Shown: positions 19,074-56,538 of the stretch, in pieces
How the letters are laid out: each line of letters opens with the position of its first letter
Numbering within the stretch: position 1 is the stretch's first letter
Origin: Escherichia coli
Lineage (GTDB): Bacteria; Pseudomonadota; Gammaproteobacteria; Enterobacterales; Enterobacteriaceae
Reading direction: 5' to 3' (one strand)
Assembly (NCBI RefSeq): GCF_003018255.1
Contig: NZ_CP027440.1
Length of the DNA stretch: 64,000 nt
Program-made: the position numbers and the translations under genes
The notes under the pieces: generated by a model
What the model saw: only the letters and a program-made list of their open reading frames with translations
The model's database searches: none
What the model was told of the DNA's origin: nothing

Positions 19074-20366
19074 TTGCTACAAGGCGCTGGCTGGTTATTG
19101 TTGCTGGCCCCGTTTTTCTTCTTCACATATGGATTTCTTAATCAGTTCACCGCGACTCAGGATCTTAACAACCATGATATCCCCAGTCAGTTATTCGGTT
19201 GGGAAACGGCGATCCCTTTTCTTCCCTGGACTATTGTTCCTTACTGGAGTCTGGATCTTTTATATGGATTTTCGCTGTTTGTTTGTAGCTCGACATTTGA
19301 GCAGCGCCGTCTGGTCCACCGGCTTATTCTGGCAACGGTAATGGCCTGCTGCGGTTTTTTTCTCTATCCGCTGAAGTTTAGTTTTATCCGTCCTGAAGTG
19401 AGTGGGGTGACAGGATGGTTATTTTCGCAACTTGAATTGTTTGATCTGCCTTATAACCAGTCTCCTTCGCTGCATATTATTCTCTGCTGGCTACTTTGGC
19501 GTCACTTTCGTCAGCATCTGGCTGTGAGGTGGCGTAAAGTCTGCGGCGGATGGTTTTTACTCATCGCCATTTCGACGCTGACGACCTGGCAGCATCATTT
19601 TATTGATGTCATCACAGGGCTGGCGGTAGGTATGTTAATTGACTGGATGGTGCCCGTCGACCGTCGTTGGAATTATCAGAAACCTGATCAACGTCGAATC
19701 AAAATAGCACTGCCATATGTCGTAGGCGCGTGCTCGTGCATTGTGTTGATGGAGCTAATGATAATGCTTCAGTTATGGTGGTCAGTCTGGTTATGTTGGC
19801 CAGTATTATCGCTATTCATCATTGGCCGTGGGTACGGTGGGCTTGGCGCGATAACAACAGGGAAAGATAGTTAGGGGAAACTCCCGCCCGCCGTTTACTG
19901 GCTGACATTGCCCTGGCGCATCGGGATGTGGCTGTCTATGCGTTGGTTTTGTCTTCGCCTGGAGTCGGTGAGCAAAATTACTGCTGGTGTTTATTTAGGG
20001 GCGTTTCCACAACATATTCCGGCACAGAATGCTGTTCTGGACGTCACCTTTGAATTCCCTCGCGGACGAGCCACAAAAGATCAACTCTATTTTTGTGTAC
20101 CGATGCTGGATCTGGTGGTTCCGGAAGAGGGGGAGCTCCGACAGGCCGTGGCGATGCTGGAAACATTACGCGAAGAGCAAGGCAGCGTTCTGGTCCATTG
20201 CGCGTTGGGATTATCGCGCAGTGCGCTGGTGGTGGCGGCATGGCTGTTATGTTACGGACATTGTAAAACCGTTGATGAAGCGATTAGTTATATTCGAGCC
20301 AGACGCTCGCGGATTGTGCTTAAGGAAGAGCACAAAGCGATGCTGAAATTATGGGAAAACAGGTAA
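19074..20366 (+). pseudogene. ynbD: ynbD membrane phosphatase (PAP2-like membrane domain plus dual-specificity phosphatase domain) interrupted by an in-frame TAG at 19872-19874
   Basis: ORFs 18975-19874 and 19908-20366 are in the same frame, separated only by the TAG; the downstream part carries the CX5R signature [11 protein letters not shown] 430-aa product (remembered K-12 length) fits exactly from TTG 19074 to 20366 if the TAG is read through. Confidence 0.55.
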
Positions 20367-20419
20367 GCGGATTGAGATGTGGACTGAATATCTACAGTCC
20401 ACATCAAGATCGTGTCCAG

Positions 20420-21025
20420 TTATTCAGCAACAATACTGTCGATGGCTGCTTTCGCGTCAGACTGCGCTTTCGCTGCCATTTCAGGACCGTATGCGATCCC
20501 TTCGGCGAAGACAAATTTCACATCGGTAATGCCGATAAAGCCCAGGAATGTGGACAGATACGGCGTCACCAGATCCGTTGGGCCATCTTTATGGATCCCA
20601 CCGCGGCTGGTGATAACGATGGCTTTTTTACCGGTGACCAGGCCTTCCGGACCGTTCTCCGTATAGCGGAAAGTAACGCCTGCGCGTGCAACCAGGTCAA
20701 AATAGTTTTTCAACTGAGTCGAGATGTTGAAGTTATACATCGGTGCCGCAATAACGATAACGTCGTGGGCTTTCAACTCGGCAATCAGCTCATCGGAAAG
20801 TGCCAGAGCTTCCTGCTGACGCGGAGTCAGCGGTGCATCGCTCGGACGCAGCGCACCAACCAGTTCGCCATCCAGCACCGGAATCGGATTTGCAGCCAGG
20901 TCGCGAACGGTGATTTCATCAGCGGAGTGCTTTTCGCGCCATTGTTCAACAAAATAATCGGACAACTGATTAGACTGAGAGTACCCTGCCAGGATGCTGG
21001 ATTTAAGAACTAATACCTTGCTCAT
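20420..21025 (-). CDS. azoR: FMN-dependent NADH azoreductase (201 aa)
   Basis: [33 protein letters not shown]... matches remembered AzoR. Confidence 0.9.
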
Positions 21026-21225
21026 GGTGTTTCCTTATAGATGTTTGAATGGGCGATGCCCCGTTGCTTGTTGACACTTTATTCACAATCCTGCCACAGA
21101 GATAGCGCAATAAATCGAAGCCTATGTTCGAATTTATTGAACAACGCATAGAAAGCCGCGATGTGGTACTCTATATCTATCATTTAAAAGAAAATTAATC
21201 AGGCAGACTACTGCCCACTAACGTT

Positions 21226-54354: not shown

Positions 54355-54804
54355 TTAAAATGTGCGCCTGGCCACCAGCCAGGCACCAACCACAAGTAAA
54401 ATTGCGCCACAAATTGGGCCGATCAACGCCCGTAGTGGTACGCCATGGCTGCGGAAGATATCCAGCACCAGACCGCCAATCAGCTGGCTGGCGACCAGTA
54501 CCGCAATAGTTGTCGCCGCTCCCACATTCTGATATCCGCTGATACTGGCGAAGACAAAAAACGATCCCAGCAAGCCAGGTATAAGTGTCCACCAGCGCAC
54601 GTTGGACACCAGTTCGCCAAACCCCGCCATACCTTGTTTAAACCATAAAATAGAAACAAAGAGCACAATTCCTACCAAAGAGTTCAGCAACATGGCGATG
54701 AGAATGGTAGAGGAGGTCTGGGTGATGCGCACCATCAGCGTGTTCTGGACTACCAGACCAATCCCGGCGGCAATCAAAAAAGCAAGGGTGAGCGACTGAT
54801 TCAT
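54355..54804 (-). CDS. ydcZ: DMT-superfamily inner membrane protein YdcZ (149 aa)
   Basis: Hydrophobic polytopic ORF. Confidence 0.8.
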   Translation of the reverse strand: MNQSLTLAFLIAAGIGLVVQNTLMVRITQTSSTILIAMLLNSLVGIVLFVSILWFKQGMAGFGELVSNVRWWTLIPGLLGSFFVFASISGYQNVGAATTIAVLVASQLIGGLVLDIFRSHGVPLRALIGPICGAILLVVGAWLVARRTF

Positions 54805-55319
54805 CAGATTGCGTCCGGTTCACTGCGTTCGTCGAGTTGCAACTGCATAAATGTCAGGTCCAGCCAGCGCCCAAATTTAGTGCCCACCTGCGGCATTTGC
54901 GCGGTGACGACAAATCCCAGCGACTGGTGCAGATGCAAAGACGCCTGATTTTGCGATTCGATCCCGGCGACCATGACATGCTTCCCGCAATCCCGCGCTT
55001 CATCAATCAATCGGCTTAACAATTTACGCCCCAGACCTTTGCCCTGATGATCGGGATGGACATAAACCGAATGTTCCACGGTATGGCGAAAACCATCGAA
55101 ACTACGCCAGTCGCCAAACGAGGCATATCCCGTCACTACGCCATCTTCTTCGCTCACCAGCACTGGATAACCTGCTATGGTCCGCGCTTCAAACCAGGCA
55201 ATGCGGTTATCTGCATCCACCGTTTGGTCATTCCAGATAGCCGCCGTATACAACACGGCGTGGTTATAAATTTCCGCAATGGCAGCACAGTCGGCTTTGC
55301 GGGCAAAACGGATGGACAT
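54804..55319 (-). CDS. mnaT: GNAT N-acetyltransferase MnaT/YncA (171 aa)
   Basis: MSIRFARKADCAAIAEIYNHAV... GNAT fold. Confidence 0.85.
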   Translation of the reverse strand: MSIRFARKADCAAIAEIYNHAVLYTAAIWNDQTVDADNRIAWFEARTIAGYPVLVSEEDGVVTGYASFGDWRSFDGFRHTVEHSVYVHPDHQGKGLGRKLLSRLIDEARDCGKHVMVAGIESQNQASLHLHQSLGFVVTAQMPQVGTKFGRWLDLTFMQLQLDERSEPDAI

Positions 55320-55499
55320 GTTTGGCCTCGATTAAATAATGATGATGACGTTATCAATACTATCGAAAACAGCCCGAAGCAACGGATTCCTCGATGAAAT
55401 TATTGCGTGTTGCAGAGGGGATGTGACGGCTGCAAACAAAACCATTCCTGCGAGCCTGCTACTATTGATGGATTCATGCCAAAAGCACAGGAGAGCATT

Positions 55500-56538
55500 A
55501 TGGGGCAACAAAAGCAGCGTAATCGACGTTGGGTTCTGGCCTCGCGTCCGCATGGCGCGCCGGTTCCGGAGAATTTCCGTCTTGAAGAAGATGATATCGC
55601 CACACCGGGTGAAGGACAGGTGTTACTGCGCACAGTTTATTTGTCACTGGACCCGTATATGCGTGGACGTATGAGCGATGAGCCATCTTATTCACCGCCG
55701 GTTGATAATTGGTGGCGTAATGGTCGGCGGTACGGTGAGCCGTGTTGTGGAGTCGAATCATCCTGATTACCAGCCTGGCGACTGGGTGCTGGGCTACAGT
55801 GGATGGCAGGACTATGACATATCCAGTGGTGATGATCTGGTGAAACTTGGCGATCATCCGCAAAATCCATCGTGGTCGCTGGGTGTGCTGGGGATGCCAG
55901 GCTTTACCGCTTATATGGGGCTGCTGGATATCGGTCAGCCCAAAGAGGGCGAAACATTGGTTGTTGCTGCGGCGACAGGTCCTGTGGGGGCGACGGTGGG
56001 TCAAATCGGCAAACTTAAAGGTTGCAGGGTGGTGGGGGTGGCCGGTGGCGTGGAAAAATGCCGCCATGCTACTGAGGTGCTGGGCTTCGATGTTTGTCTT
56101 GACCATCACGCGGATGATTTTGCCGAACAACTGGCGAAAGCGTGCCCAAAAGGTATTGATATCTATTATGAAAACGTGGGCGGTAAGGTATTTGATGCAG
56201 TGCTACCTTTACTTAATACATCTGCGCGCATTCCCGTTTGTGGCTTAGTGAGCAGCTATAACGCTACAGAGCTACCACCCGGTCCGGATCGTTTACCTCT
56301 GCTGATGGCTACGGTGCTGAAAAAACGTATTCGCTTGCAAGGATTTATTATCGCTCAGGATTATGGTCACCGCATCCAAGAGTTTCAGAAGGAGATGGGG
56401 CAATGGGTGAAAGAGGATAAAATCCACTACCGCGAAGAAATTACTGACGGTTTAGAGAATGCGCCACAGACGTTTATCGGCCTGCTGAAGGGTAAAAACT
56501 TCGGCAAAGTGGTGATCCGCGTGGCGGTTGATGATTAA
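55500..56538 (+). pseudogene. curA: NADPH-dependent curcumin/enone reductase curA (yncB) carrying a +1 frameshift near 55705-55709
   Basis: N-terminus [26 protein letters not shown]...[23 protein letters not shown] (frame of ORF 55407-55766) and the remainder [26 protein letters not shown]... (ORF 55678-56538) are in different frames; the span 55500-56538 is 1039 bp, one base more than 345 codons plus stop. Confidence 0.75.

Follow-up and report, generated by a model that had tools for sequence, protein, structure and literature searches.

We analyzed a stretch of 64,000 nucleotides from Escherichia coli (contig NZ_CP027440.1 of RefSeq assembly GCF_003018255.1), which we will call the window. 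A map of its open reading frames (ORFs) and alignments showed that the window spans the ompN–yncH region of E. coli, which corresponds to 1.435–1.527 Mb of K-12 MG1655. The gene order is ompN-ydbK-ldhA-ydbH ... hrpA ... trg ... ydcSTUV-patD ... curA-mcbR-yncD-yncE-ansP-yncG-yncH, and the identity to K-12 is about 96–98%. The nearest complete genomes (99.6–100% identity) are JNE23-011, JNE112863, 200164, E04, 2014C-3338, SCU-171, and a few more. Of these, SCU-171 belongs to sequence type (ST) 657 and is a commensal isolate from a human (PMC11251922). The region around ydbD is 99.8–99.9% identical to poultry isolates, among them strains of avian pathogenic E. coli O78:H4. The strain that the window comes from is close to ST657 and ST117 genomes.

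Three genes in this region, ydbD, ynbD, and curA, are broken. An earlier note on this DNA had claimed several independent inactivating lesions in dispensable genes, namely in these three genes and possibly in yncL. Base-by-base comparison with K-12 and with near-identical relatives confirmed that there are several independent, genuine lesions of this kind: those in ydbD, ynbD, and curA are real, while yncL is intact. Relative to full-length orthologues from K-12, IAI39, and JNE23-011, each of the three genes has a frameshift, an internal stop, or a truncation, and we infer from the sequences that the function of each product is lost. The features of the three genes are:

14267–15617, plus strand: ydbD pseudogene (DUF2773/bactofilin-like), 1351 nt instead of 2307 nt in K-12, with three in-frame TAA codons and a change of frame after a deletion
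14607–14662, plus strand: pentanucleotide microsatellite (GTAAC)x11 within ydbD (Tandem Repeats Finder: period 5, 11.2 copies, 100% matches)
15156–15163, plus strand: junction of the 1001-bp deletion in ydbD, at an 8-bp direct repeat, AAGGAATT (from comparing the K-12 breakpoints with the junction in the window)
19074–20366, plus strand: ynbD pseudogene, of the same length as in K-12, with a single nonsense codon (from codon-by-codon comparison with K-12)
19872–19874, plus strand: Q267* in ynbD, TAG for CAG, in the linker between the PAP2 and DSPc domains
55500–56538, plus strand: curA pseudogene, 1039 nt instead of 1038, with the frame lost at codon 70 and a stop after 88 amino acids
55706–55707, plus strand: the extra A in curA, AA where relatives have one A (GATATT → GATAATT)

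In ydbD, the earlier note had seen a repeat expansion plus a frameshift. This was right in substance, but the frameshift is due to a 1-kb internal deletion, not to a small indel; also, the range given in that note (19872–56538) leaves out ydbD, which lies at 14267–15617. The 1001 bp of K-12 ydbD between two copies of AAGGAATT are missing from the window, which shifts the frame. The 45 extra bases of the GTAAC array (nine units) leave the frame unshifted. Across the array, the frame of ydbD reads GGT AAC GTA ACG TAA (GNVT*RNVT*RNVT*RNVT), so that there are three in-frame TAA codons, and the translation of YdbD ends at residue 117. At the site of the array, K-12, IAI39, and EH41 have GTAAC GTGAC GGCAAC. 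Because these three genomes read GTAAC GTGAC, the array probably began with a synonymous change of GTG to GTA and then gained nine units.

We counted lesions in 5426 complete RefSeq genomes of E. coli, and we counted protein fragments by the contigs that encode them in a collection of 15 billion proteins (which draws on NCBI and on Logan assemblies of public sequencing runs). In 75 of the 5426 genomes, at least 80% of a 100-nt query over the ydbD deletion junction was covered, and the 117-residue fragment of YdbD was found on at least 1000 public contigs. In E04 and JNE23-011, NCBI's prokaryotic genome annotation pipeline (PGAP) labels the orthologue of ydbD as "frameshifted; internal stop". 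We also noticed that ydbD from EH41 is full length and is frameshifted by a different lesion. IAI39 has intact ydbD and ynbD, plus a 5.9-kb autotransporter that is similar to ydbA.

The GTAAC array varies greatly in length. Among 60 of the roughly 75 genomes from the clade, the spans of the matches correspond to 4, 5, 7, 8, 9, 10, 11, 12, 13, 14, 15, 18, 19, or 21 copies, and genomes with the ynbD allele of the window have 4 to 11 copies. In a sample of 60 genomes that was spread across the whole ranking of matches, 57 had the ancestral length of two units; of the remaining three, two had expanded arrays and one matched only in part.

We considered that the tract might be a translational phase switch. 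As at known phase-variation loci, it is a hypervariable simple repeat within a gene (4–21 copies), but we found no reversible switching of the frame between ON and OFF states by copy number. We rule out a switch because the repeat unit itself carries TAA, which any array of three or more units puts in the frame of ydbD, and because ydbD also has the 1001-bp frameshifting deletion. In the literature on ydbD repeats and on pentanucleotide phase variation in E. coli, we found nothing that describes this locus. The tract behaves like a neutral microsatellite, tolerated solely because ydbD is dead. Its hypervariability is the sole mildly unusual feature that we found, and it is confined to the clade in which ydbD is already dead. 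In this clade, which includes ST117-like poultry isolates, the microsatellite might be usable for typing.

In ynbD, the nonsense mutation that had been reported earlier is present: CAG is replaced by TAG at 19872–19874. YnbD has two Pfam domains, PAP2 (amino acids 74–198) and DSPc, a dual-specificity phosphatase (amino acids 306–429). The premature stop leaves PAP2 whole and removes the phosphatase domain. An 81-nt query over the stop had perfect matches in 12 of the complete genomes; the other matches listed were off by one base. Every genome that is 100% identical to the window over a 2.2-kb stretch with ynbD carries the stop, and PGAP calls the gene a pseudogene. PGAP reports an "internal stop" in ynbD from E04, JNE23-011, 2014C-3338, and EH41. 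A C-terminal fragment of YnbD that begins with M289 (142 amino acids) was found on 958 public contigs. We also considered whether the C to T transition occurred at a Dcm hot spot, but the context is AGT CAG GGG (TCAGG) and not CCWGG, which rules this out.

In curA, the +1 insertion was identified correctly in the earlier note: there is an extra A at 55706/55707, in codon 70. Removing the extra A gives the exact sequence of curA from JNE23-011, where the gene is intact. CurA loses residues 70–345. None of the 5426 complete genomes has the extra A. The exact 88-residue product of the frameshift was found on 27 public contigs, some from NCBI and others from Logan assemblies (among them those of runs ERR3653889 and SRR16940972). 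The frameshift product has a tail of 19 out-of-frame residues, which can only stem from this +1 insertion. We fetched the loci from ERR3653889 and SRR16940972; over stretches of 6.3 and 3.5 kb, their sequences match the window exactly. The contigs with the fragment that we read are mostly 20–50 kb, which is typical of short-read assemblies, and they come from different submitters.

The earlier note had raised the possibility that the broken genes are artefacts of systematic single-base indel errors in the assembly. In favor of this, the lesion in curA is a single-base insertion that is absent from the complete genomes. Also, two close relatives have 1-bp frameshifts of their own: JNE23-011 lost a G from a run of Gs in pdxI (13661–14520 of its segment), and E04 lost a T from tehA (39839–40830). 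Such events, whether real or artefactual, are common in assemblies. (Both pdxI and tehA are intact in the window.) However, the insertion in curA is the only single-base indel among the three lesions, and each lesion was found in independent assemblies. Many genomes that were sequenced independently carry the lesions in ydbD and ynbD, neither of which is a single-base indel, and the exact frameshift product of curA is on contigs from different submitters. All three lesions are thus reproduced in independent sequencing of related isolates. Over about 63 kb aligned to JNE23-011, the window's own differences in length are a single 1-bp indel (in curA), three additional GTAAC units, and an additional 21-bp unit. 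The sole remaining 1-bp difference lies with JNE23-011, which lost a G in pdxI. Relative to K-12, the single-base indels other than those in curA and gapC (where the window has the intact gene) are all intergenic or are compensated in frame. Nor do indels cluster in homopolymers, as had been suggested for such errors: the inserted A of curA, which is the window's sole 1-bp indel of its own, is outside of any homopolymer run. Systematic indel error is excluded, and we give almost no credence to the idea that the lesions are artefacts.

We next describe the intact genes and the deletions in the window, which include these features:

53572–53667, minus strand: yncL, intact, 96 nt (31 amino acids), with the substitution F13V
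27877–28878, minus strand: gapC, intact, 333 amino acids; a frameshifted pseudogene in K-12
12181–12387, minus strand: 3' remnant of feaR, which abuts the paaX remnant; deletion scar
12388–12540, plus strand: 3' remnant of paaX, which abuts the feaR remnant; deletion scar

A possible +1 insertion in yncL had been proposed, but yncL has no indel relative to either K-12 or JNE23-011, and its ORF is intact. Since yncL is intact, the pattern of two single-base duplications (A to AA and T to TT) that the earlier note described does not hold: A to AA is found in curA, but there is no T to TT lesion anywhere in the window. The large or core genes that had been described as intact (hrpA, ydbK, ydbH, yncD/pqqU, and trg) are indeed full length and without internal stops. 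In a gene-by-gene comparison of 61 K-12 genes with the window, 57 orthologues were full length with no internal stop. The other four K-12 genes were feaR and paaX (remnants), ynbG (which has no match in the window), and gapC. In gapC, the window has one more G, at 28136, and this base restores the gene, which is broken in K-12; the annotations of E04 and JNE23-011 list gapC as a functional gap gene. Two genes, ydcO and mnaT, end one codon earlier than in K-12, and they are annotated as intact in this form in JNE23-011.

Two losses were overlooked in the earlier note. First, a 17.7-kb deletion between feaR and paaX removed feaB, tynA, and paaZ-paaK. At the scar, the coordinates of the K-12 segment in the alignment skip from 11586 to 29335. 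PGAP marks the feaR and paaX remnants as "incomplete" in E04 and JNE23-011. Second, ydbA is absent from the window. Next to the scar, paaY is intact (12522–13112), but it is orphaned by the loss of paaZ, paaA-K, and most of paaX. Many relatives have a copy of IS200C, which the window lacks, somewhere within the stretch that is matched by 11400–15800 of the window.

We made several other observations about this region. Between tehB and ydcL, at 40503–40566, there are three copies of a perfect 21-bp tandem repeat, CTTTTTCGGCATTGACTATGT, with an overlapping 15-bp repeat at 40483–40513. JNE23-011 has one fewer 21-bp unit, and the alignment with K-12 breaks there, so this is a second locus of variable copy number in the window. 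The most diverged gene that we checked is ynbA (91.6% nucleotide identity and 91.1% amino acid identity to K-12). It has changes of –1, –1, and +2 within 12 nt (15931–15943) relative to K-12, which compensate for each other: about four codons are recoded and the length of 606 nt is kept. In IAI39 (segment 27499–30584), aldA is truncated beside an IS3 element, and pptA and yddH come next in the genome; the interval from gapC to yncH is absent. Because IAI39 lacks the whole interval from the truncated aldA to yddH, this region is dispensable in nature. At the left end of the window, 604–1000 matches the right end of the Rac prophage of K-12 and the ttcC remnant, and 1–763 lacks homology to ttcA from JNE23-011 and E04, which is intact there and whose homology begins at 764. 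Because of the Rac/ttcC match, and because the homology to ttcA from these relatives begins only at 764, the source strain seems to carry a prophage that is integrated in ttcA, with other cargo upstream of 604.

The distribution of the three lesions among the complete genomes is nested: 75 of the 5426 have the ydbD junction, 12 have the ynbD stop, and none have the extra A in curA, which is found in a small set of draft assemblies. This nested distribution is directly observed, and because of it, we conclude that the lesions accumulated singly over a long period.

The other possibility raised in the earlier note was that pseudogenes are accumulating in a host-restricted lineage, so that the window would be a sample of a genome that is undergoing reductive evolution as in Shigella. 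The window has five disrupted or remnant genes in 64 kb, all of them dispensable metabolic or envelope genes, and most of the 12 complete genomes that carry the ynbD stop come from humans. However, carriers of the ydbD lesion were isolated from chickens, turkeys, dogs, pigs, humans, river water, seawater, and wastewater, and carriers of the ynbD allele include an isolate from river water and a commensal ST657 isolate (PMC11251922). This is not a narrow host range. Also, no insertion sequence (IS) element was found in the window: there is no insertion of more than about 50 bp relative to K-12, so there is no sign of IS expansion. The lesions arose at widely separated times. And the density of broken genes is not well above that of generalist relatives in the regions that we sampled. 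The homologous region of JNE23-011 also has five disrupted or remnant genes, and K-12 has four pseudogenes of its own in the homologous interval (ttcC, ydbA, gapC, and yncK). In four arbitrarily placed 50-kb samples of the JNE23-011 genome, PGAP flagged 4, 0, 6, and 0 pseudogenes. From these samples, one would expect about 3 per 64 kb, and the flags clump strongly in variable regions. In density, the window resembles other regions of JNE23-011 that are variable, and it does not exceed the background for E. coli. Host restriction was not borne out, given the differing depths of the lesions, the broad hosts, the lack of IS elements, and the background density, and we consider it highly improbable.

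A third possibility is that some of the losses are adaptive, and in particular that removal of the C-terminal phosphatase of YnbD was selected. This would explain the presence of the identical Q267* in two backgrounds as well as the other truncations of YnbD. EH41 and EH53 have the same CAG to TAG change at codon 267, on a ynbD haplotype with 46 other differences from the window (ynbD of EH41 is at 5742–7034 of the compared segment). That the stop lies between the two domains, with PAP2 kept whole, would also fit with selection. Furthermore, several other truncated forms of YnbD (N-terminal fragments) are found on multi-megabase contigs of other E. coli. However, C to T changes that create amber codons are common, and the sample comprised thousands of genomes. 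A gene conversion tract would explain the sharing equally well; flanking differences at nucleotides 747 and 843 limit any such tract in EH41 and EH53 to about 95 bp. Also, neutral decay of a dispensable gene predicts recurrent truncation as well. The recurrent truncation of YnbD fits with the frequent loss of a dispensable gene, and nothing requires selection. We think that selection for truncated YnbD is quite unlikely.

The observations on ydbD and ynbD can also be read together. The GTAAC tract would be an undescribed and fast-evolving microsatellite that arose through the GTG to GTA change in a single clade (ST117, ST657, and their relatives), and it would be a possible marker for fine-scale typing. 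Combined with the occurrence of ynbD Q267* in two unrelated backgrounds, the tract could then be a sign that losing an envelope module, ydbD-ynbABCD, was selected in this clade. We view this combined reading as unlikely.

Instead, we think it very probable that ydbD, ynbD, and curA are ordinary, genuine, and vertically inherited pseudogenes. They are dispensable genes in a plastic region of the chromosome, and they would have been inactivated by unrelated mechanisms, at different times, in one lineage near ST657 and ST117. Both ydbD and ynbD are already annotated as pseudogenes in the RefSeq records of close relatives.

From how widely each lesion is shared, we propose this order of events. 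First, an old deletion, by illegitimate recombination or by replication slippage, would have removed the DNA from feaR to paaX. Second, ydbD would have lost 1001 bp by slippage between the 8-bp direct repeats. Also at this stage (either before or after the deletion in ydbD), the synonymous change of GTG to GTA would have created two perfect GTAAC units, which slipped-strand mispairing then expanded. Once ydbD was dead, the copy number of GTAAC could drift freely, to give the 4–21 copies that are seen today. Third, a C to T transition, not at a Dcm site, would have led to Q267* in ynbD. Finally, and most recently, a single A would have been duplicated in curA, in a small sub-lineage.

Four points weigh against our proposal. 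For EH41 and EH53 to share Q267* with the window, our proposal needs either a recurrent C to T mutation or a short conversion tract, and the sharing could hint at selection. The background rate of pseudogenes comes from a sample of four 50-kb regions of one relative. The extra base of curA in this assembly is supported indirectly, by the 27 contigs and the two identical loci. And that the losses are neutral is assumed.

Our result is mainly a negative one: the cluster of broken genes signals neither a poor assembly nor a host-restricted lineage. Because neither is flagged, this genome needs no special follow-up. Our approach does give a way to distinguish between those two explanations without the sequencing reads, which is to ask if the exact frameshift product, or the allele with the lesion, recurs in independent public assemblies. 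Also, the lesions form a nested series of markers for clades.

How do these lesions compare to known systems? The simple sequence repeats at the contingency loci of Haemophilus and Neisseria include tetra- and pentanucleotide repeats in coding regions (PMC2651432, PMC5909438). Like those loci, ydbD has a perfect pentanucleotide tract in a coding region, and the copy number varies between near-identical strains, with 8, 9, 10, and 11 copies among genomes that have the ynbD allele of the window. In contrast to those loci, no copy number of three or more restores the frame of ydbD, and the gene also has a 1001-bp deletion. Loci with a variable number of tandem repeats (VNTRs) and a short unit are used for multiple-locus VNTR analysis (MLVA) of E. 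coli. The GTAAC tract is similar to these loci in that it is an array of short units whose copy number is hypervariable within a clone complex: there are 4–21 copies in ST117-like and related genomes. It differs in that its unit is 5 bp and the array is limited to one clade.

Host-restricted Shigella and enteroinvasive E. coli show reductive decay of their genomes. As in those bacteria, the loss-of-function mutations in the window affect metabolic and surface genes, but the window shows no IS expansion, its lesions lie on branches that range from deep to shallow, the carriers come from a broad range of hosts, and pseudogenes occur at the background density. A closer comparison is to the pseudogenes of K-12 in the same interval: ttcC, ydbA (which contains IS2 and IS30), gapC, and yncK. 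There, the mechanisms of inactivation were insertion of a prophage or of an IS element, or a frameshift. Other genes are affected in the window, its lesions do not involve an IS element, and gapC is intact. But in both genomes, dispensable genes were inactivated by unrelated mechanisms and the lesions were fixed in one lineage, at a similar density per kb.

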